A stretch of DNA of 64,000 bases from Patescibacteria group bacterium. GTDB taxonomy: Bacteria; Patescibacteriota; Patescibacteriia; JAHIZJ01. A model generated the notes under the pieces. The model worked only from the letters and a program-made list of their open reading frames with translations. It made no database searches and was not told the DNA's origin. The stretch spans positions 72,496-136,495 of the forward strand of contig JAQTMH010000003.1 of the NCBI GenBank assembly GCA_028714495.1, in the 5' to 3' direction. Positions 11,247 to 58,605 of this stretch are shown in pieces (positions within the stretch are counted from its first letter, which is position 1; each line of letters opens with the position of its first letter). The translations under genes and the position numbers were made by a program.

Positions 11247-11636
11247 GGGGATGTCCAACATCGACGGGTAGCCCATTCAAAAACCGGCCAATCAGAGCTC
11301 CAGAACTCTGTCAAAATCTGGAAAAACGACAAATGCCAAGTCGACTTTCGCTAAACTGAAGAATGCTTTCGCATCATTCAGTTTTGCGCCCGCTGTTGCC
11401 TAATAATCAACAGCCATCCGTTCTCTTGACTCCTGATAGGGAGATAACGGGTGTCAAATTATCAGGACGGACGATTTATCCGTTTCAGTAAGTCGTTATC
11501 GGGCTATGAAGCTAGAATGAAGAGGGCTTTTGTCTGTCTTGACCCTTTTCATTCGAATCAATCGAGATAGACTATGTTGGTAGAAGGTTTTTGGAAAACT
11601 ATCCAGACAGGGGTGAAAGGCCCCTCATCTCCACCA
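11247..11636 (+). ncRNA. ssrA: tmRNA
   Basis: 5' GGGGATG pairs with 3' CATCTCC-ACCA including G3-U70. Tag ORF 11335-11403 reads (A)AKSTFAKLKNAFASFSFAPAVA followed by TAA TAA. Confidence 0.95.
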
Positions 11637-11687
11637 TGTACCACTCACAGAGTTTACCCCGATGTCTATCGGGGCTCGGGTACATGG
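11634..11687. repeat. Short palindromic REP-like module abutting the tmRNA 3' end
   Basis: CCATGTACC...CCCCGAT-GTCT-ATCGGGG...GGTACATGG; shares TGWACCACTCAC...GCTCGGGTWCA with the rnpB inserts. Confidence 0.55.
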
Positions 11688-11737
11688 CGGCTAGTGGAAT
11701 AAATTGCTCAAATCACTAACCATTAACTTCATAAGAA

Positions 11738-47836: not shown

Positions 47837-50185
47837 TTATTTCTCGAAAACCACGCCGAAATATATATCGTTCTTTAAGACATCCTCAAGAATAATTCCT
47901 TCAGCGTCACTCTTAAGTTTTGAGCTTTCCGGCCATTGCCAAGTAATCTGATAATCGTCGGGATAACGAATTCGCGAGTGAAAAACACTGTCAAAGCTGC
48001 CAGACTGTTTCTGGACTAAAAGACTGTAGGGCGCTGAATTGTTCATCACGTTATCAAGCCTGACGGTAAACGGCAGACGATAAACCAGTTTGACGGTCAC
48101 GCTTGAGCCTGGTTCCACTTGAACCCAATTTCCGAAAACCGTCTTGCCGAATTCATCATTTATCCGCGTGCCAGTTCGTTCGTCAATAATCACCTGTCCC
48201 TCGATTTTTGTCAGATCAGGATCATTCTCATAACCGTCGGCCGGCCATTGAAACAGCTTGGCGTCCGGCTGGGTAAATCCTTCAGCCTCGAGCAGGGTCG
48301 AGCCGCGCGGCACATAGAGTCTTAGAAAATCAATATTTTTTACGCCAGTCCAAGGATCATCCTTGAGGCCATTATGCACCCGGGTGATTTCAACCGAGGC
48401 GATTGTTTCTCCGCCCGGCTTAATTTCAATCTCATGACTCACGGTTTGATCAATAACCGCGTCAGTTTTACCCCCGCTGATATTGCTGTTGACCACCATC
48501 AGATAGTCGCCCGACGTCTGTTTCACTTCACCGGCCCAATCAAGCTCGTTTATTTTTTTCTGGGCCGCTTCGTCCCCGAGGTAAAAAAGCAGGTCGCGAT
48601 TCGACAAGGCGTCGCTGAAAGCTTCTAAAATGGTGAAAAATTGCTTTTGGTCGCCGGCAAAGACCTTTTGCAGCAAGACCGGCACTAAATCAGCGATAAA
48701 CTGCTTCGGCTGGTTGGTGGCGCGATCGTATTCATTTTCAACTTCGTTTAAAGTTACGTCAATGAAATTCTCGCTGGTGACGGTTACTCCGTATTTTTCC
48801 TGCATATCTATTGAACCGGTAATTTTCAAGAGGTCGATAATCACGTCTGGCGTCAAGCTGATGATACCGTCAACAGTCGGACCCCCGCTTTTTTCATAAA
48901 ACCACATTATCTTCTTGGCCGAGGCCGGAAAATCCGGGAACCAATTGGCGTCCTGGATATACCAGTGGGGATTGACCAAATGCAAAGGACCGGGTGAAAT
49001 CACGTGCTCCTTTAACTGGCCCTGGAGATCATAGGATCCGCCGCCCGGCACCTCGAGCTTAACCAATTGACCCTGGTCAATATCAACCAAGGCCAGGCTG
49101 CCGATAAAACCGCCGGTCGCGCGCAGCTCACGGTTATTTTGAAAAATCAATAGATAGCGTTTCGGCGCTTCGCCTCCCAGCAATGAATAGAAAACTTCGC
49201 TGAACGTCAGAAATTTATCAAAGTCCTGTTGCAGCAATGGTAAAGACTCCTGCACCCTTCTCATTTCAGATTGGTAATTCTCGGGAAGAGCTGAAACCTC
49301 GACTTCTTGTAAATGCTTGTTGGCCTCGCTAATGCGGTCACGGGCTGGCTGGAGCAAAGATCGGCTGTCTTTGAGTAGTTTGGTTAAATCATTTTTGGCT
49401 AATAAATTTTGCCCCGCGGCCACCTCCGGATTTATTAGCTCGATCACCCGAGTCACGTCTTGGCCGGCTAGAGCAATCGCCTGCCCCGCCTCCAAGAGAT
49501 GTTCGCCTGAAGCAAGAACTTTGCCCTTAAAAGGGATGTATTTCAATAAAGTGAACAATGTGCCGCCCATGCGGTTGAGCTCCTTTTCGGCCAAAAGAAA
49601 GGTATCAGAGGCGTCCGAAAAACGCTCCTGCGCCAGGTTATAATCGCTCTCAGTGGCCGCCTCGCCGGCCAAAACCAGTTGATCAAAGGCCTTAATTGAG
49701 ATATTGACAATCCGGCCGCGGAGCTCGACCAAATGCTGATAGCCCCAAAAGCCGAAGATGGGCAAAACTAAGGCTAGGCAGACAACAACGAAAATCGCGA
49801 GAGGCTTTAAGCGCGCCGGCTCAAGTCTCAACCGCGGTTTAGGAAATTCAAACTTTACAGACTTTTTAGCCTTGGCTGATCTTTGTTTGTCTGGCCCAAA
49901 AGCCGCCGGCTCGACCATCTCAATCTTGGCCAAAGGCTCGCTGGCTTTTTCGGGCCCAGGTTTTGAATTTAAATTCTTTGCCCAATCCTTGAGTCGGCCA
50001 ATGCCGGAACCGCTTTTCTTTTTCTGCAGTTCGGTCTTAAGCTTTTCAATTTCCTTCTGCAGCATCAGTTCGCGCAGGTTGATGACGTTGGTATCAGGAA
50101 CCCGGCCGCTCTGGATGGTTTGAGCGGATTGATTTAGCCAGATCTTTTTGGCTACTGGTTTCTTTTTTTTCTTCGGACTGTTCAT
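47837..50185 (-). CDS. DUF4012-domain membrane-anchored protein
   Basis: YLLIFQNNRELRATGGFIGS, DANWFPDFP, LRLYVPRG. Confidence 0.85.
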   Translation of the reverse strand: MNSPKKKKKPVAKKIWLNQSAQTIQSGRVPDTNVINLRELMLQKEIEKLKTELQKKKSGSGIGRLKDWAKNLNSKPGPEKASEPLAKIEMVEPAAFGPDKQRSAKAKKSVKFEFPKPRLRLEPARLKPLAIFVVVCLALVLPIFGFWGYQHLVELRGRIVNISIKAFDQLVLAGEAATESDYNLAQERFSDASDTFLLAEKELNRMGGTLFTLLKYIPFKGKVLASGEHLLEAGQAIALAGQDVTRVIELINPEVAAGQNLLAKNDLTKLLKDSRSLLQPARDRISEANKHLQEVEVSALPENYQSEMRRVQESLPLLQQDFDKFLTFSEVFYSLLGGEAPKRYLLIFQNNRELRATGGFIGSLALVDIDQGQLVKLEVPGGGSYDLQGQLKEHVISPGPLHLVNPHWYIQDANWFPDFPASAKKIMWFYEKSGGPTVDGIISLTPDVIIDLLKITGSIDMQEKYGVTVTSENFIDVTLNEVENEYDRATNQPKQFIADLVPVLLQKVFAGDQKQFFTILEAFSDALSNRDLLFYLGDEAAQKKINELDWAGEVKQTSGDYLMVVNSNISGGKTDAVIDQTVSHEIEIKPGGETIASVEITRVHNGLKDDPWTGVKNIDFLRLYVPRGSTLLEAEGFTQPDAKLFQWPADGYENDPDLTKIEGQVIIDERTGTRINDEFGKTVFGNWVQVEPGSSVTVKLVYRLPFTVRLDNVMNNSAPYSLLVQKQSGSFDSVFHSRIRYPDDYQITWQWPESSKLKSDAEGIILEDVLKNDIYFGVVFEK

Positions 50186-51303
50186 TTTTGCTGTTCGTAA
50201 AGCGCCAGGGTTTGTTCGGCCATTTTTGGCCAGCGATACGTCTTAACTTGCCGATAGCCCAGCTGGCGCAAATTATCTCTGGCTGGTGAGTCGTTTATCA
50301 AATCTGAAAGCACTTTTACTATAGCATGTTTGCTTTTTGGATCAAAGTAGGCGGCGCCTCTGCCTAACACCTCGGGCAGACAGGAAGCCGAGGACGCGAC
50401 CACCGGCAACCCATACTGCATCGCCTCAAGCGGCGGCAAGCCAAAGCCCTCGGCCAGCGAAGGAAAAACATAGAGCATCGCTTTTTGATATAATCCGGGC
50501 AAATCCTCGTCTGGAATATAGCCTGGGAACACCACTCGGCTGGCAAAACCCATTAATTCGCTTTTATTTTTCAGCCGGCCATAGAAATAATCCAAGCGTC
50601 CGACCAAAACCAGTTTCAATTCGGGAAATCTTTCCTTAAGCTCCGCGAAGGCTTCGAGCAAAAGCTCTAAATTTTTATGCGGGTAAGCATTGCCTACGTA
50701 TAAAATGTAGGGTTCATTGATTTTATATTTTGCCAAGACGTCTTGAGCCGGGGTTGGCGTGGCGCTAAAAGGCTCGGCGGCTTCATAAGTCACCGCCACC
50801 TTATCCGGGTTTAAGCGGAAATAGCTGACCAATTCCCTTTTGGTGTATTCCGAAACCGTGATCACTTTCCGGCTCCGTTTTACGGCCGAGGAGATCACCC
50901 ACTGATAGCCTAAACGTTTAAGAAGATATCTGGCTGGCCCGAGGGTGGTGGCTCGGGTTGTCGGAAAATGCGTAATGATTAAATCGTGAATCGTGACTAT
51001 AAAAGGCTGGTAATAAAATAGGGGTACGTTAAAATGGGGGAAATGCATGAGATCCAGCTTTTGGGCTTTGATTAGCCTAGGAAAGGACACTTGCTCTTTC
51101 AAAGAGTACCAGCGAAAAGGCGCTTTGATTTTTCGGAAGCGGGGGTTTTTAGGTTGGTAATAATCCCAATTCTCTTCACGCAAAAAAATCGTGTATTGAT
51201 TTAACGAGTCGATAATTTCCAGATTTTTTACGAGCTTTTCGGTGTAACGGCCGAGGCCCTTGCCCTCTGGACCGAAAAATCTCGCGTCAATTCCGATGTG
51301 CAT
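50182..51303 (-). CDS. Glycosyltransferase family 4
   Basis: VGNAYPHKN, EGFGLPPLEAM. Confidence 0.93.
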   Translation of the reverse strand: MHIGIDARFFGPEGKGLGRYTEKLVKNLEIIDSLNQYTIFLREENWDYYQPKNPRFRKIKAPFRWYSLKEQVSFPRLIKAQKLDLMHFPHFNVPLFYYQPFIVTIHDLIITHFPTTRATTLGPARYLLKRLGYQWVISSAVKRSRKVITVSEYTKRELVSYFRLNPDKVAVTYEAAEPFSATPTPAQDVLAKYKINEPYILYVGNAYPHKNLELLLEAFAELKERFPELKLVLVGRLDYFYGRLKNKSELMGFASRVVFPGYIPDEDLPGLYQKAMLYVFPSLAEGFGLPPLEAMQYGLPVVASSASCLPEVLGRGAAYFDPKSKHAIVKVLSDLINDSPARDNLRQLGYRQVKTYRWPKMAEQTLALYEQQK

Positions 51304-52441
51304 ATATATTGGCAGTAGTTTCTAATAAATTCAAAGTTCGCTCGGCTGTCTTGGCCCAGGAATATTTTTCAGCCAATTCTTGCCGGTGATTCATTAAACG
51401 CTGTTTTAGGCCGGGGCTGTTTAACACCTGACGCATGGCTTCAGTCAATTCCGCTACATTGTACGGCTGGATCATTATCCCGGCTTCGCCTACAACTTCT
51501 GGCAAAGAGGCTGAGGCGGAAATTATAACTGGAGTGCCGGCCATCAGACTCTCCAGCGGCGGAAAGCCAAAGCCCTCGTAAACCGACGGGTAGACAAAGA
51601 CTTGGGCCAGCTTCATTAAGCAGACTTTTTCCGACTCAGAAACATAGCCGATAAAACGAACATCTTCTCTGTTCTTCAGGCTCAATCTCAAACGCTCCAA
51701 TTGGGAATGTTGCCACGAAGATTGTCCCGCCAAAATCAACTGGAGCGGCCTAGGGTATTTTTCCTTGAATAAATCAAAAGCCTGGAGAGTCGCCATCAAA
51801 TTCTTTCTCGGCTCAAGAAAACTCAGTGAGAAAATAAACGACTGGTTAAGCCGATATTTTTCTCGAACCGAAGCAAGGTCTCGACCAGTAACTGAATTGA
51901 ATTTCCGAGCGTCCACTCCAGGATAAATCACCTTGATCTTATCCGCGGAGACTCGGTAAAGTTCGACCAAATCCCGCTTGGTGCTTTCGGAAACGGCAAT
52001 AATCCCGTCAGCGCGTTCGACCAGGCGTCTCGGAGAGATAAACCGGTGCCACAGCCGGCGTTTCCAAGAGAGAAACTTCGGGTATAATTCAAAGGATAGA
52101 TCGTGAATGGTCAGAACCAAGGGGCAGTCCGGCGACAGGCTCAAAAAATTGAGATTGGGCGCGAAAAAAACATCGCATCGTCCAATCAGTGAATCTAACG
52201 CCGGTCTTTTTAAAAAAACCAGGCTGGAGTTGAATAGCTTATTCGGCCAGCGGGTTGTTTTATAATTAACATTTGGATAATCAAAATCCACGCGCTCAGT
52301 CTGAGCCCAGGCATTTAGAAACAAAGTGTATTCATTTTTCTTATCTAACTCAAAGAGGCGTCTTAAAAGCTGCTCGGCGTATCTCGTGACGCCGCCGGGC
52401 TTAGGTTCGGCTAGTGAGCGAATGTCAATGCCTATTCGCAT
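51287..52441 (-). CDS. Glycosyltransferase family 4
   Basis: LEPRKN, YEGFGFPPLES. Confidence 0.93.
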   Translation of the reverse strand: MRIGIDIRSLAEPKPGGVTRYAEQLLRRLFELDKKNEYTLFLNAWAQTERVDFDYPNVNYKTTRWPNKLFNSSLVFLKRPALDSLIGRCDVFFAPNLNFLSLSPDCPLVLTIHDLSFELYPKFLSWKRRLWHRFISPRRLVERADGIIAVSESTKRDLVELYRVSADKIKVIYPGVDARKFNSVTGRDLASVREKYRLNQSFIFSLSFLEPRKNLMATLQAFDLFKEKYPRPLQLILAGQSSWQHSQLERLRLSLKNREDVRFIGYVSESEKVCLMKLAQVFVYPSVYEGFGFPPLESLMAGTPVIISASASLPEVVGEAGIMIQPYNVAELTEAMRQVLNSPGLKQRLMNHRQELAEKYSWAKTAERTLNLLETTANIYAHRN

Positions 52442-53058
52442 CAGACCGGATCGCTTTTAAAATATCGCACCAGGTAGATTAAACCAAGGCTTAAGAATAA
52501 ACCAAGCATCAGGCCAACAATCGTGTTCAAAACGACCGCCGGATTGGCCTCGACTATCACCGGCTGACTGCCAACCACCTCGAATAGGGCTTTTTGATCG
52601 GCTGTCCGATTAAGATCAGCGCCTCGTTTCTGAACCACCTCAATAATTGACTGGGAAATCTTTTCAGCCGTGGCGCGATCCCGCTCCCGGAATGTTAACA
52701 CAATGTTCTGGGAAGAATATTTCTTGGTTTTAAACCGGTTGGTAAAACGCTCGAGTGAGTCAATCTGTGGGTCAACCTTGGCCTGATCATAAATTTCCAA
52801 AAGGACCGACGGGGTGTAAAACCAGCTGACCACGGTCTGCGAAAAAAGGTCGCTGGCCTGAATCGCGTAGTAGCCGTCAAACTGGTATTCGGCTGTCTCC
52901 TGCTTGTTTACCCGGTTGACCGCGAAAGAGATAGAGGTTTTGTAATACGTCGGTGAATACTGGCTGAAGACGTAAGCGGCCGCCCCCACAATTAAAGTCA
53001 GCGCCAAGATAATAACTAGATTCTTTTTTAAAATGGCTTTATGCTCGGAAAATGTCAT
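52441..53058 (-). CDS. Wzz/CpsC-like polysaccharide chain-length protein
   Basis: Two terminal TMs around an extracellular domain, inside the GT cluster. Confidence 0.65.
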   Translation of the reverse strand: MTFSEHKAILKKNLVIILALTLIVGAAAYVFSQYSPTYYKTSISFAVNRVNKQETAEYQFDGYYAIQASDLFSQTVVSWFYTPSVLLEIYDQAKVDPQIDSLERFTNRFKTKKYSSQNIVLTFRERDRATAEKISQSIIEVVQKRGADLNRTADQKALFEVVGSQPVIVEANPAVVLNTIVGLMLGLFLSLGLIYLVRYFKSDPV

Positions 53059-53083
53059 GGGTTAGATATTTATGGATAAATTA

Positions 53084-54169
53084 TTATTTGATTCGCTGGC
53101 TAATGAAATCTTTTATTTTCTGTTTGAAACGGGGCAAGCTGAATTCTTCGGCGTGGCGCCGGATTGTTTCCGGGTCAAAAGTTTCAGGTTTGAAACGCAA
53201 AACGGTGTCGGCCAGAGCGGCCCAATTCTGATCCTGGAAGAGAACGCCGGTTTTACCATCTACCACCGTCTCCAGAGCGCCACCCTTGGCATAGGCAATT
53301 ACCGGCCGGCCTGAAGCCATCGCTTCAATCGCCGTAATGCCGAAATCCTCTTCCTGGGGGTAGAGGAAGGCTTTGGCGTGGCGCATGAGCTCAGCCTTTT
53401 GCTCTTCGGTGACCGAACCAAGAAATTCGATATTCGACTTAGCCATCTTTTTCAGCCTCTCCTCCTCGAGGCCGCTGCCAAAAACCTTTAGCGGCAGACC
53501 GAGCTGATTGAAGGCTTGAATGGCCAGATCGAATCTTTTGTAGGGCACTAAGCGTCCGCCGATTAAATAATAGTTGCCGACATCCTTGGCGATAGAAAAT
53601 TTTTCAATATCAACCGGCGGATGGATCACCGTGCTGGGTCGGCGGTAATATTTTTCAATGCGCTTTTGCACCGCGACTGAATTCGCGATAAATTCATCAA
53701 CTCTCTGAGCCGCCATTTGATCCCAGATTCTGATCCGGGGCAGGAAAAACGGAATCAGCCGCTTGATGAAACGGGGGTAATGAAGTTCTTTAATATAACT
53801 ATGGGTATCGCTCCAGAGATAGCGGGTCGGCGAGTGGCAATAACATATGTGCAAGGCATCCGGCTGGGTTATCACGCCCTTGGCAAAAGCCGAGGCCGAA
53901 GAAAGAACCACGTCGAATTCCGTCAAATCATACTTCTCGACCGCCGTGGGCATCCAGGGTAAAAACCACTGGTAGTGCCGGATGCCGAGGGGCAATTTTT
54001 GTAGAAATGAGGTTTTAATTTTTTTATCGCGAAAAACGGGGTTGGCATGATTGCGATCGTAAACCAAAACATAGATCGGAGCGTCTGGATAGATTTCCTG
54101 AAAGGCCTGTAAAACCCTTTCAGCGCCCCCGTCCTGTGCCAGATGTTCATGGATCAACGCGATTTTCAT
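53084..54169 (-). CDS. Glycosyltransferase family 4 (mannosyltransferase-like)
   Basis: GGAERV, CYCHSPTRY, EDFGITAIEAMASG. Confidence 0.93.
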   Translation of the reverse strand: MKIALIHEHLAQDGGAERVLQAFQEIYPDAPIYVLVYDRNHANPVFRDKKIKTSFLQKLPLGIRHYQWFLPWMPTAVEKYDLTEFDVVLSSASAFAKGVITQPDALHICYCHSPTRYLWSDTHSYIKELHYPRFIKRLIPFFLPRIRIWDQMAAQRVDEFIANSVAVQKRIEKYYRRPSTVIHPPVDIEKFSIAKDVGNYYLIGGRLVPYKRFDLAIQAFNQLGLPLKVFGSGLEEERLKKMAKSNIEFLGSVTEEQKAELMRHAKAFLYPQEEDFGITAIEAMASGRPVIAYAKGGALETVVDGKTGVLFQDQNWAALADTVLRFKPETFDPETIRRHAEEFSLPRFKQKIKDFISQRIK

Positions 54170-54173
54170 AAAT

Positions 54174-55562
54174 TTAACTTGCTGATTTGGTGCTTAAGAC
54201 CACCAGGGGCGTCCGTAAAATAATTTTAATATCCAAAAGCGGCGACCAATGCTCAATATAATATATATCCAAACGCGCCTCATCGTCAAAGCTTAAATCC
54301 GACCGGCCGGAGATTTGCGCGAATCCGGTAATGCCAGGTTTAATAGCCAGCAGTTTTCGGTAGTCGTGACGATAACGACTGACCTCTTCTGGCTCATGGG
54401 GTCGCGGCCCGACCAGGCTCATCTGACCCTTCAAAACGTTAATGAGCTGGGGCAACTCGTCAATGCTCGTCCGCCTAATAAACCTGCCGAAGCGGGTAAT
54501 CCGCGGGTCGTTTTTCATCTTAAAAAGCGGGCCGTCACGACGTTCATTGTACTTCATTAATTCCTTTTTCATGGCGTGGGCGTCTTTTACCATGGAACGG
54601 AATTTAAAAAGCCTAAAGGGTTTACTTCCCTCGCCTACCCGATCAAGCTCCACGAATACCTGCCCAGGTGAATCAAGCTTGATTAAAATGGCTATTACCA
54701 GAAAAAATGGGCTCAAGATTATTAAGGCAACCAGGGAAATAATCGTATCGGCGACCCGTTTCGAAATCCGGCCCCAGCCATCCAAGGCTGTGCGCTTGAT
54801 CTCGATCAGCGGGCGACCGGCCACGGTTTCAATCCGGATATTGGAAATCTTGGCGTCAAGCAGGTCAGCCGCGTATTTGAAACCGACGTGGGAATCATTG
54901 CAGACGTCTAAAAGTCTCATCCGTTCTTCTCGCCCAACTCCCGGATCAGCTAGTATCACTTCATCGACACTCTTGGTTCGAAACATCTCACGAAGTTGAT
55001 TTAACGACTGGTCATCAACTTGTTTTATCTTTTCGACAACAGAGTAGCCTAAATTCAAATTATATCGAAAAAGCTCGCTGATATGGTCGGCCGTCTCGCC
55101 GATTCCGATCAAAACCACGTTTCTCAAACCATAGCCTCGACGGAACAGCGAATGCTGGATATTTCTGACAACTAGCCGGCCAAGGCTTACAAAAACCATG
55201 GCCAAGACCCAGCCACCTAAGATAATAAACCGTGAGGAGAATAATTCGCGCTGAAAGAAAATCAATAATATAATCAGCAAGACGCCGGTGGAACAGCCCA
55301 AAATTATTTTCACAAACTCATCGAGAAATCGGCGCGTGCTCTGGATCGCGTAGAGCCCGCTAAAAATGAAAACTACCACCCAGACTACTCCGACAATTAA
55401 TAGAATCGAAAAATACTCCCGTAAAGGAAGCTCATAGACAACCGGCCTCAAAGTCGCGATTTCAGAAAAACGCAAACGGTAAGCTACCAAACCAGACACC
55501 AGAATCATCAGATAATCAACCGGCACTAAAATTGCGCTGAAAACTAATTCAGATCGCTTCAT
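54174..55562 (-). CDS. Polyprenyl glycosylphosphotransferase (WcaJ/WbaP-like initiating transferase)
   Basis: FKFRSM, DPRITRFG, DELPQL, SLVGPRP, PGITG. Confidence 0.93.
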   Translation of the reverse strand: MKRSELVFSAILVPVDYLMILVSGLVAYRLRFSEIATLRPVVYELPLREYFSILLIVGVVWVVVFIFSGLYAIQSTRRFLDEFVKIILGCSTGVLLIILLIFFQRELFSSRFIILGGWVLAMVFVSLGRLVVRNIQHSLFRRGYGLRNVVLIGIGETADHISELFRYNLNLGYSVVEKIKQVDDQSLNQLREMFRTKSVDEVILADPGVGREERMRLLDVCNDSHVGFKYAADLLDAKISNIRIETVAGRPLIEIKRTALDGWGRISKRVADTIISLVALIILSPFFLVIAILIKLDSPGQVFVELDRVGEGSKPFRLFKFRSMVKDAHAMKKELMKYNERRDGPLFKMKNDPRITRFGRFIRRTSIDELPQLINVLKGQMSLVGPRPHEPEEVSRYRHDYRKLLAIKPGITGFAQISGRSDLSFDDEARLDIYYIEHWSPLLDIKIILRTPLVVLSTKSAS

Positions 55563-55610
55563 TGCCAAAAATTAAAGCGTCTTAAGAAAACCTGTAAGCC
55601 GAATTCTGTC

Positions 55611-55722
55611 CCTGAACCACTCACTTCGCTTCGCGAAGCTCGGGTTCAGGGCTCTGCCCATTAAATATAGTGGGCAAGGCCCTGAATCCCGAGCGACGCA
55701 CCGCGGAGCGAGTGGTTCAGAG
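55611..55722. repeat. 112-bp palindromic element, copy in the rnpB P19 position
   Basis: CCTGAACCACTCACTTCGC...GCGAGTGGTTCAGAG; direct repeat of 56215-56326. Confidence 0.9.
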
Positions 55723-56214
55723 GATGACCATCTATCTAGTCCTGACGTTGCCGTCAGGCTCAAGCAACCTACCCGCCCCGTACCGATCCTAATGGGTCTG
55801 GTACAGGGCCTATTCGGTCTTGCACCTGGCAGGGTTTTTCACGCCAGGCCATTGCTGGCTCAGCCTGTGGGCTTTTACTTTTGCCCAACACCCTTTCGGA
55901 TATTGAGTTTATTCCACACAAAGGTGGACCCACTCTTTTCACCCTTGCTTTTTGCCTGTTAAGTCATTAACAGGCCAATTAGCGGTTTTGTCTCTGTGAC
56001 ACTGTCCCTGGGCTTCTGAGAATCCAAAAAGTCTATAGCACTTTTTAAATCCTCCTTACTCCCGCCTTCATTTCGAAGGTGCCATTGTCCCGCCCACCTT
56101 TCCAGCCATGGTCAACGATAGACATTGGTCAAAGGCGAAGCCGCCTAGCGGCTAACGCATCAGTGAATAACAGCCATTGATAGAAAGGTGGGCGGGGGTG
56201 TTCGGACTTTCCTC

Positions 56215-56326
56215 CCTGAACCACTCACTTCGCTTCGCGAAGCTCGGGTTCAGGGCTCTACCCATATAAAGTTATGAGCAAAGCTCTGAATCCCGAACGA
56301 CGCACCGCGGAGCGAGTGGTTCAGAG
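56215..56326. repeat. 112-bp palindromic element, copy in the rnpB P3 position
   Basis: Same arms as 55611-55722 with a divergent centre. Confidence 0.9.
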
Positions 56327-56486
56327 CGGCCATCCGGTCTTCTTAAGACGCCTAAACCATAACGTAAAATCAATATTTTGTCAACCTCAATAAAATGGGG
56401 CGGAGTAAACCCCTTATTTTTTGCGTAGGTGATTTTTCTACCGCTACCCCTTACGCCTGGCCGATAGATTTAGGTGAGGAAAATAT

Positions 56487-56900
56487 CTATTTAAGTTTTT
56501 TATCCAGCGCCTCGTTGACTAATCGGTCAGCCACTTTGTTCTGCTCACGGGAAATGTGTTTAAATTCCACCTTCTTAAACTGCTGGACCAGATTCCAAAC
56601 TTTTACAAAATACGGCCCCAGCTGGTGGTTTTTGACTTTGTATTTCAAAGTCAGTTGTTTGACCACCAGTTCGCTGTCCAAATAGCAGATCGCGGTCTGG
56701 GCGCCCAATTCCCTTGCCTTGGCCAGGCCCAAACCAACTGCCCGATATTCAGCTTGGTTATTGGTCAGCTCGCCCAAATATTCGGAAATCGTCTCAATTG
56801 CCTTTTTATCTTCGCTGGCGTATATCACAACGCCCGCGGCGGCTGGACCGGGATTGCCCCGGGCTCCGCCGTCTGAATAGATTATCACGCTTTTATCCAT
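56487..56900 (-). CDS. rnhA: Ribonuclease HI
   Basis: SDGGARGNPG, TNNQAEY, DSELV, N..AD. Confidence 0.93.
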   Translation of the reverse strand: MDKSVIIYSDGGARGNPGPAAAGVVIYASEDKKAIETISEYLGELTNNQAEYRAVGLGLAKARELGAQTAICYLDSELVVKQLTLKYKVKNHQLGPYFVKVWNLVQQFKKVEFKHISREQNKVADRLVNEALDKKLK

Positions 56901-58605
56901 GGGATGGTTTTATATCAATCATTTTAAGCTGAAGCTCGCGCGTGCCATTCCACTCGTTGAAGCCGATTTCATAAGCCACGTCAACCTTATCCTGTCTAGT
57001 TAATTTATCGCCCCACTCGCCAAAGCCGAAGCCAATCAGCCGCCGCGCCACCTGCGATTTGTCGCGCACAACTAGACGCAGGTGTTTCTGGTCAGCCCCG
57101 ACTTGCTCCCAGTCTATCACTTCGGCTGAGCGCGTCACGAATCTCGGTATCGGATTCCCCTCGCCGAATGGCGCGAAGGTTTCAAGAGCCTCTGTCAGCG
57201 TCCAATCAATTTGCCCAAACGTTAATTCAGCTTCGAGCTCCAGCTTGGGTTTTAAGTCTACCTGCTTCAATTGACTGGCCGCCAGTTCTTGGAGTCCTTT
57301 TTTGAATTCGGAAACAGTCGCCCCTTCCTTCAGAGTAAATCCGCAAGCTTGCCGATGGCCGCCGTAGTGGCTCAATAAATGCTCCAGCTTTTTCAAAGCC
57401 TCGGTGATGTGAAATTCCGGCAAACTCCGGCCTGATCCGATTATCTGGTTCTGGCGCTTGCCGATTATCACCGTGGGCCGATGATATTCGTCAGTCAGCC
57501 TGGAGGCTACCAAGCCGACCAAACCAGCCGGCCAATCCCGCCCCTGGGCCACCAGCAAATATTGTTCTGGCGTTACTTCGCCAAGCTGAGTTTTAGCCTC
57601 CTGGGTTATTTTTTCCGTGAGGCGCTGGCGCTCCTGATTCATCTTGTGAAGATTTAGAGCCAGCCGGTCAGCTTCTTCCTTCAGCCCGGTGATGATCAAT
57701 TCATAGGCACTGTTGGCGTGATCAACTCTGCCAGCCGCGTTGAGCCTGGGTACGATTTGAAAAGCTACCGCCCGTGAATCGATTGCTTCGGACTTCAGGC
57801 TCATTACCGCATAGAGCGATTGCAAACCCACCCGACGGGTTTTCTGCAAAACGATCATCCCGTATTTCGCCAGGGTTCGATTTTCTCCCACCAGCGAAAC
57901 GTAATCTCCGATCGTCCCAAGCGCCACCAAATCCAAAAGCCATTTTTCCATAGATTCTTTCATCTGCCGCTTTTTGAATAAGGCCTGCGCCAGTTTAAAG
58001 GCGACGCCGGCGCCGCTGAGCTTTTGAAAGGGGTAATTATCTCCCACGCACCAGGGATTGATAATGCTAAAAGCCCGCGGCAATTCCGGATGAGGCATGT
58101 GGTGATCAGTAATAATTACTTCCAGGCCGAGCTGGTTGGCCAAAGCCACTTCCTCAATATTACTGGTGCCGCAGTCAACCGTGATGATCAATTTGGTGCC
58201 GTTTTTTGCCAACTCTTTGACTGTCTGAATATTTAAGCCATAGCCCTCGATTTGGCGGTCTGGCAGATAAACTTCGACCTGGCAATCAGGCTCAATTATC
58301 TTCAAGGCGCTGACCATGATCGCCGCCCCGCACACTCCGTCAGCGTCATAATCGCCATGGACCACGATCGGCTCTTTCTCTTTCAAAGCCTTAAAAATGC
58401 GTTCAACGGTTTTTTCCATGTCACGGAATAAAAATGGGTCGTGGATATCCTGGCCGTAATCTGGATTGGTAAATTCGTCAATGGCTTCCTGGGTACTCAA
58501 GCCGCGGTTGTAGAGCAATTGCAAAATAACCGGATGAATTTCCGGGAAAGAATCTTTATACGATTGCGGCATTGGCTTGGCGATCAGCCAACTTGATTCC
58601 TTCAT
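56893..58605 (-). CDS. recJ: ssDNA exonuclease RecJ
   Basis: GDYDADG, EGYG, TVDCG, TDHH, PRLNAAGR, GGH. Confidence 0.96.
   Translation of the reverse strand: MKESSWLIAKPMPQSYKDSFPEIHPVILQLLYNRGLSTQEAIDEFTNPDYGQDIHDPFLFRDMEKTVERIFKALKEKEPIVVHGDYDADGVCGAAIMVSALKIIEPDCQVEVYLPDRQIEGYGLNIQTVKELAKNGTKLIITVDCGTSNIEEVALANQLGLEVIITDHHMPHPELPRAFSIINPWCVGDNYPFQKLSGAGVAFKLAQALFKKRQMKESMEKWLLDLVALGTIGDYVSLVGENRTLAKYGMIVLQKTRRVGLQSLYAVMSLKSEAIDSRAVAFQIVPRLNAAGRVDHANSAYELIITGLKEEADRLALNLHKMNQERQRLTEKITQEAKTQLGEVTPEQYLLVAQGRDWPAGLVGLVASRLTDEYHRPTVIIGKRQNQIIGSGRSLPEFHITEALKKLEHLLSHYGGHRQACGFTLKEGATVSEFKKGLQELAASQLKQVDLKPKLELEAELTFGQIDWTLTEALETFAPFGEGNPIPRFVTRSAEVIDWEQVGADQKHLRLVVRDKSQVARRLIGFGFGEWGDKLTRQDKVDVAYEIGFNEWNGTRELQLKMIDIKPSHG

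Follow-up and report, generated by a model that had tools for sequence, protein, structure and literature searches.

Palindromic repeats of two families at three sites, including helices P3 and P19, in the RNase P RNA gene of a Patescibacteria group bacterium

Introduction

Why should the RNase P RNA of a bacterium with a 1.17-Mb genome (6 contigs) be about twice the usual length, and why should two of its helices be made of the same palindrome? The question is posed by the rnpB gene within a 64-kb stretch of DNA from a Patescibacteria group bacterium, referred to here as the window. An original prediction, based on the letters of the window, held that the gene is oversized with an intact core, that one palindromic element forms both P3 and P19, and that this element is either a mobile palindrome that colonised an essential ribozyme twice or a domesticated set of structural or protein-docking arms. 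It also raised cross-pairing of the copies, and it named a mis-assembly duplicating the element as the result that would overturn it. Here we describe the gene, its relatives and the other copies of the repeat, and we weigh these readings along with several others.

An oversized gene with an intact core

The gene occupies positions 56352-55577 of the minus strand and encodes a class-A-like RNase P RNA some 776 nt long; it is the only RF00010 match in the genome, i.e. a single copy. A-type RNase P RNAs have a mean length of 374 nt and a stated range of 250-550 nt (PMC7191817), so the gene is oversized as predicted, yet its P2-to-P4 span of 740 nt (class median 435 nt) is exceeded in 4 well-parsed genes among the 103 of the class sample. 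Without the palindromes in P3 and P19 the gene would measure 561 nt, and about 450 without a third insert as well. The core landmarks J3/4-P4, P5, P7, J11/12, J12/13, P15, J15/18, P18, P2 and J19/4 were all found, in order, by manual annotation (Table 1), which agrees with the intact core of the prediction; the helix names are those that we take to apply. Membership of class A is indicated by complementary strands of P1, P2, P4, P5 and P7 together with the ordered conserved core regions.

The proposed comparison with RF00010 recovered the gene with 92.3 bits (E 1.9e-28) in a local alignment spanning 55579-56100 only. This score lies under the gathering score of 100 bits, and a standard Rfam scan therefore misses the gene, whereas the rnpB genes of all six relatives from the same taxonomic family, whose inserts are fewer or shorter, pass the threshold. 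Sequence resembling the promoter-like site also occurs upstream of rnpB in these relatives. The cognate rnpA, which the prediction asked for, is intact (113 aa), and PF08745, presumably the marker family of protein-only RNase P, has no match in the 98.9% complete genome. Taken together, the intact rnpA and the lack of a match to the protein-only family suggest that the RNase P RNA is likely to be essential and functional. The gene is flanked, at 47837-55568 and 56487-58605, by what we read as an RNase H-like/recJ-like block and a downstream polysaccharide cluster on the same strand (a sugar transferase and glycosyltransferases), and the RNase H-like neighbour was found again in relative G003.

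Table 1. Features of the rnpB locus and further family-A copies (window positions, unless a contig is named)
Feature	Position	Strand	Remarks
Sigma-70-type promoter-like site of rnpB	56356..56384	-	10/12 consensus positions matched
P1, 5' strand	56336..56352	-	partner 55577-55592
P2, 5' strand	56328..56335	-	partner 55722-55729
P3	56214..56326	-	family-A doublet palindrome throughout
J3/4 and P4, 5' strand	56200..56214	-	complementary to P4 3' strand, 55595-55610
Family-B inverted-repeat element, 108 bp	56089..56196	-	between P5 and P7 (P5.1 position)
P9, extended	56010..56063	-	also in family relatives; non-repetitive
P13 region with two extra hairpins	55867..55936	-	common to family relatives
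P15-P17 and P18	55741..55819	-	
P19	55610..55722	-	family-A doublet palindrome throughout
J19/4, P4 3' strand, P1 3' strand	55577..55610	-	
Single family-A-like unit with nested hairpin	11634..11688	+	fused to tmRNA CCA end
23S family-A copy	C4:36668-36771		diverged
23S family-A copy	C4:37447-37559		
23S family-A copy	C4:38059-38171		

Three inserts of two repeat families

The palindrome in P3 and P19, which we call family A, is present as two copies of 113 bp at about 56213-56326 and 55609-55722, respectively, in the same orientation and 604 bp apart. They are 90% identical without gaps (92% with gaps), and 5 of their 11 ungapped differences fall in an A/T-rich central loop, so that the predicted pair of copies with near-identical arms and divergent centres is borne out; five of the others convert G-C to G-U pairs in the P3 RNA and one produces a mismatch. 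When folded, each copy forms a single rod (-75.9 and -83.3 kcal/mol, z -11.5 and -12.6, with 0 of 200 shuffles folding as well), which has an unbroken 16-bp base, about 43 pairs in all and internal loops above the base. A small hairpin unit makes up each arm, and the whole is an inverted doublet around an A/T-rich spacer, which is the architecture of a REPIN. The P19 copy looks closer to a perfect palindrome and is likely the younger, either as a new arrival or as a copy of P3. The rods also drew matches to miRNA families in Rfam, all below cut-off, and an identity of this kind was rejected because the matches are those of generic hairpins.

The prediction did not include the hairpin repeat of 108 bp in the P5.1 position, which is unrelated to family A and is referred to as family B. 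Seven more copies are present in the genome, all of them intergenic by an ORF screen (profile E 1e-26 to 6e-35), and relatives from the family have a short hairpin where family B sits here. The rnpB gene thus holds three inserts of two repeat families.

Assembly of the repeat-bearing genes

A repeat of this length could be duplicated by an assembler, and the contigs of run X1 do end inside an arm in which 47 nt are identical. However, X1 contigs tile the rnpB region with 0 differences, and in run X3, which derives from another sample of the same study and shows strain differences, one contig covers 55441-55777 and another 56184-56358, so that each family-A copy is bridged and flanked on either side by 31 nt or more. 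The X3 differences in the P19 region number four, all inside the element. Moreover, the two copies differ from each other at the sites noted above, and relatives carry either homologues at the same helices (both P3 and P19 in relative G005) or empty helices. For rnpB, an artefact duplicating the element is therefore refuted, and the outcome that the prediction had feared did not materialise. By the same 31-nt rule, none of the family-A copies in the 23S rRNA gene is fully bridged among the contigs listed, and one contig of run X2 joins the centre of the third 23S copy to the right flank of the second via a shared arm. Recombination was considered as a reading of this contig and set aside in favour of an assembly path through the repeat; the full Rfam model aligns collinearly with the 23S gene.

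Family A in 23S rRNA and at the tmRNA end

The prediction proposed counting the element genome-wide, and a profile search found five family-A doublets, all in stable-RNA genes: the two in rnpB and three more, which it had not foreseen, in the 23S gene. The abundant extragenic copies that would be expected of a REPIN are accordingly missing. The genome has single, unlinked 16S and 23S genes; the profile search revealed no strong family-A copy in its 16S gene or, for 4 relatives, in 23S. In the genome's own 23S gene the copies take the place of hairpin tips of the RF02541 model near positions 583, 1218 and 1762; we take these hairpins to be helices H25, H45 and H63. All three copies are inverted relative to those in rnpB, and the two intact ones are 85% alike. 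An inner sequence is private to the two rnpB copies, which also agree in orientation and are 74-81% like the 23S copies. The single unit at the tmRNA end is a weak profile match (E 0.63; fold z -5.2), and the same arrangement, a unit following a tmRNA or tRNA end, is seen in other genomes. Outside RNA genes, close matches to the short unit occur in this genome only at the 3' ends of two of five short GIY-YIG genes.

Two of the three 23S copies are placed as intervening sequences (IVS) are, in that a stem-bounded insert replaces a short helix at H9, H25 or H45. This raises the alternative that the rods in rnpB behave as rRNA-type IVS, with RNase III cutting them without ligation and the mature RNase P RNA consisting of three or four base-paired pieces. 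An RNase III gene is present in the genome, so that retention of the rods is not assured; their uninterrupted base and number of pairs fit such a fate, H25 and H45 are common IVS sites (PMC4990558, PMC11270868), and Neisseria repeats have been proposed as RNase III substrates (PMC2229807). However, internal loops interrupt the rods, once P3 and P19 were both cut, only P1, P2 and P4 would hold the short end pieces in place, and the literature search described below found no fragmented bacterial RNase P RNA. We consider this fate somewhat unlikely. RNA run X12 (4% of words) contained relatives only, all without the element.

Several further features of the stable-RNA genes were observed. The 23S gene (C4:35888-39305, 3418 nt) has more unrelated expansions near model positions 228, 281, 312 and 455, and relatives G002 and G004 have long, intron-like 23S inserts near the E. 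coli 1931 region. The tmRNA gene (11247-11636) was detected by Rfam and missed by ARAGORN. At C3:185484-185560, C1:297617-297692 and C1:221544-221620, complete tRNA genes are nested in the anticodon region of a broken tRNA gene copy and bounded by GC-rich inverted repeats, and in several other tRNA genes leader and trailer are complementary. ARAGORN did not list a tRNA-Asn in this 98.9% complete genome; the gene may be split by an intron or insert. Elsewhere, a sequence of at least 200 bp is repeated in tandem in apparently coding DNA (C3:157395 and 157848, 453 bp apart).

Occupancy of P3 and P19 in relatives and across the class

Among the six relatives from the family, homologues of family A occur in both P3 and P19 of G005, in P3 of G004 and in P19 of G003, whereas G001 and G002 have unrelated palindromes in rnpB. 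All of these homologues are oriented as the 23S copies of the genome studied here, inverse to its rnpB copies. Occupancy differs within a single genus, as P19 is filled in G003 and short in the congeneric G006; a relative in run X4, roughly 95% alike, has a 29-nt P19, no family-B insert and an apparently shortened P3 element. Comparison of filled and empty sites (G003/G006 and run X4) indicates that the native helix is replaced with its base alone kept, and no clean duplication was seen. A BLAST search of the element against 60 relatives gave 2 weak matches only, and structure-anchored parsing is therefore needed to find homologues.

A survey of the class comprised 121 rows, 11 of which were left unfetched (3 already in the set, 1 fragment, 3 second matches and 4 at contig edges); 103 of the 110 fetched genes were parsed, and 7 that were unparsed or mis-parsed were dropped. 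P3 measures at least 60 nt in 21 of the 103 and P19 in 20 (one of them probably mis-parsed), with either helix long in about 32-33 genes and both in 8. Long peripheral inserts are thus common in the class, and they are most likely neutral. Family-A doublets are also found in P3 of two other taxonomic families, G113 has a second family-A copy near P12 together with a family-B-like insert, and the P3 doublet of one Patescibacteria record is 91% like that of a genome of the same class. Entire GIY-YIG ORFs lie within rnpB at 5 of 115 loci; P3 holds three of them, and the P5.1 site and the vicinity of P12 hold one each. Their boundaries are formed by other terminal repeats, similar to family-B ends. 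At loci L126, L128, L093, L127 and L132, P19 or another helix holds repeat types that we take to be like those flanking four-helix-bundle and GxxExxY genes. Three genomes (G023, G042 and G100) have two RF00010 matches each, which represent duplicate rnpB genes or contamination.

These comparisons bear on how the second rnpB copy arose. The prediction spoke of two colonisations; two copies are certainly present, but two arrivals and one arrival followed by a local copy both fit the data. Gene conversion or duplication may have carried the element from one of the two helices to the other, a local step that needs no nuclease and is compatible with the explanation favoured below. The copies are 90-93% alike, lie close together and share inner sequence and orientation that set them apart from the 23S copies, of which the two intact ones are less alike. 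On the other hand, the P3 and P19 copies of G005 are only 79% alike, and in 7 of the other 11 genes in which both helices are long the two inserts are unrelated (scores were low at all but one of the 11 loci tested). Local copying is a possibility that we take seriously without favouring it.

They also bear on whether the ribozyme has come to need the rods as structural or protein-docking arms. Two observations speak for such domestication: homologues occur at P3 or P19 in 3 of 6 relatives, and among 46 long inserts in P3 or P19, 35 have the better fold in the sense that is transcribed. The latter bias fits RNA-level selection or strand-biased mutation; short native helices are similarly biased (96 of 138), and a C-to-T bias on the non-template strand could cause it. 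Domestication is further opposed by the inverted orientation relative to relatives and to the genome's own 23S copies, by presence and absence inside one genus, by the substitution of unrelated repeats at the same helices, and by covariation in the rods that is near zero (term -0.28, 5 of 33 pairs). This part of the prediction is thus not upheld, and we consider domestication highly improbable.

A GIY-YIG nuclease as candidate mobiliser

To characterise the short GIY-YIG genes we used the closest relatives of the one at C1:30387, a query that itself bears a unit. A family-A unit lies within -200/+150 nt at 10 of 39 homologue loci as compared to 6 of 3000 random windows, the enrichment being judged against genomic background and against more distant matches of the same search. 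The usual order at these loci is a tRNA or tmRNA end, the doublet and the GIY-YIG gene, and 19 of 40 homologues lie at most 300 nt from a tRNA or tmRNA. Ten doublets were tested (7 from GIY-YIG loci, 3 from tRNA ends), and 8 align to the P19 copy above all 200 shuffles. A 44-tip tree, built from short sequences with modest support and 4 short matches left out, places 9 of the 11 proteins that bear a unit in a single subclade of 13 members (support 0.81); the ORFs inside rnpB lie outside this subclade. Each of the five short GIY-YIG genes of the genome has a tRNA gene at a distance of 450 nt or less, in four cases of 110 nt or less. The nearest solved relatives of the linked proteins are UPF0213 proteins, and no NCBIfam family scored above cut-off. 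One short GIY-YIG gene of the genome (C1:93891-94109), which we take from its family signature to be Ssn-like, branches apart from the others and has small hairpins on both sides. Locus L299 has a GIY-YIG homologue inside a 23S gene, at the helix that the diverged family-A copy occupies here.

The reverse comparison gave a different picture. Among the matches listed, the exact short unit occurs at 41 of 80 fetched loci, in species genomes of Patescibacteria, Omnitrophota, Planctomycetota and others; 13 of these 41 have a tRNA nearby, and none (0/41) of those from other genomes has a GIY-YIG gene within 900 nt. The link thus runs from gene to repeat and not the reverse, and, being drawn from gene neighbourhoods, it is an association only. 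Within RNA genes, no element was found with a nuclease gene between two family-A arms.

A RAYT/Y1 transposase might move the doublet instead, which would make it a true REPIN. The architecture is REPIN-like (PMC3337134) and the genome has five Y1-transposase family matches. None of the units on the genome-wide match lists lies near any of these five genes, however, and no RAYT gene flanked by the same units was found among them, whereas two units are located at GIY-YIG genes. We regard the Y1 alternative as very unlikely.

Proposed origin and retention of the inserts

The explanation that we lean towards, with slightly more confidence than doubt, is that P3 and P19 of rnpB were replaced by a selfish, non-autonomous doublet, mobilised by a GIY-YIG nuclease and retained in the RNA as inert closed rods. 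The family-A element would move as DNA, and it would arrive at, or be copied into, hairpin-forming sites of stable-RNA genes, with a subgroup of tiny GIY-YIG nucleases as its likely mobiliser. Selection would keep just those copies whose 16-bp basal stem rebuilds the host helix; judging from folding, P2, P4 and the junctions of the catalytic core would then be unchanged, and the doublets would fold as closed rods away from the core and stay as inert passengers. Orientation relative to transcription varies between rnpB and 23S doublets, occupancy turns over between close relatives, and both unrelated palindromes and entire GIY-YIG ORFs occupy the same rnpB helices as family A. This freedom of orientation, turnover and interchangeability favour a selfish element acting at the DNA level over an RNA module. 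The predicted mobile palindrome in an essential ribozyme finds support in the 23S copies, in the filled and empty helices of G003 and G006, and in the units at tRNA and tmRNA ends and GIY-YIG genes. Its suggestion of cross-pairing holds in so far as the summed energies of isolated duplexes are close (-153.2 vs -154.3 kcal/mol), but the cross-paired state has only about 4% of the ensemble weight when modelled without P4 and tertiary contacts. Such pairing would break P2, and P3 is transcribed some 500 nt before P19.

A bolder combination would have undescribed GIY-YIG-driven elements specialising in stable-RNA genes and RNase III cutting the rods, to yield a naturally fragmented, multi-piece ribozyme. 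We think this unlikely.

Relation to known repeats and inserts

The closest precedent by description is the Rickettsia palindromic element (RPE), a palindrome of 105-146 bp in the RNase P (M1) RNA gene, and known from the tmRNA gene too, that is considered neutral (Ogata et al. 2002, cited in PMC2229807). Here, in contrast, two families account for three inserts in one rnpB, there is a linked gene as candidate mobiliser, and family-A doublets are confined to stable-RNA genes, whereas the RPE is spread through intergenic and coding DNA. The genes for 16S and 23S rRNA in CPR bacteria contain short, uncharacterised non-intron inserts at stem-loop tips, many of them at known IVS sites, with GIY-YIG ORFs in non-intron inserts only (Tsurumaki et al. 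2024, PMC11270868). Family A resembles these inserts; the terms 'RNase P' and 'palindrom' are absent from the main text of that paper, which does not describe rnpB or shared repeat families. In 23S IVS proper, which RNase III cuts, a long terminal stem replaces a short helix at H25 and H45 (PMC4990558). Two family-A copies do the same, if our helix numbers hold, but family A occupies one more 23S helix as well as helices of RNase P RNA, and its excision is a proposal. For RNase P itself, diverged CPR RNAs with large helix extensions that fall below the Rfam cut-off have been reported (Lui et al. 2021, PMC8172020), much like the gene described here, although the cited sections do not trace those extensions to repeat families.

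Among mobile repeats, REPINs consist of two inverted hairpin units around a spacer, with singlets also known (Bertels and Rainey, PMC3337134). Family A shares the inverted doublet, the spacer and the singlets, and it differs in being low-copy and located in RNA genes, and in that the genes associated with it are of the GIY-YIG and not the RAYT kind. Ssn nucleases are encoded by single-domain GIY-YIG genes of about 90 aa, flanked by NTS/SRM hairpin repeats and proposed to be IS-like (Chenal et al. 2025, PMC11893778). A single-domain GIY-YIG gene with flanking hairpin repeats is likewise found here; the SRM pattern, however, had 0 matches in rnpB, the 23S copies and five GIY-YIG loci. As it also missed the most Ssn-like locus of the genome, this test is weak. 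The linked GIY-YIG proteins branch apart from the protein to which we apply the Ssn-like label. The terms tRNA, rRNA and Patescibacteria are absent from the main text of PMC11893778. Our literature search, with supplements and subscription papers outside its scope, found no paper on the family-A repeat, on one family shared by rnpB and 23S rRNA genes, or on GIY-YIG ORFs in rnpB.

Conclusions

Precedents are thus known in the RPE and the CPR rRNA inserts, and three inserts in one ribozyme, with one family shared with the 23S gene, are a striking load. The locus and its relatives provide a natural map of the sites where an essential ribozyme tolerates rods of 110 nt, and they explain the oversized rnpB genes of many small genomes, which standard annotation misses. 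They also tie inserts in rnpB and 23S rRNA to one repeat family with a candidate mobiliser, and they bear on how short palindromes spread and on whether the RNase P RNA of a bacterium can exist as fragments in vivo.
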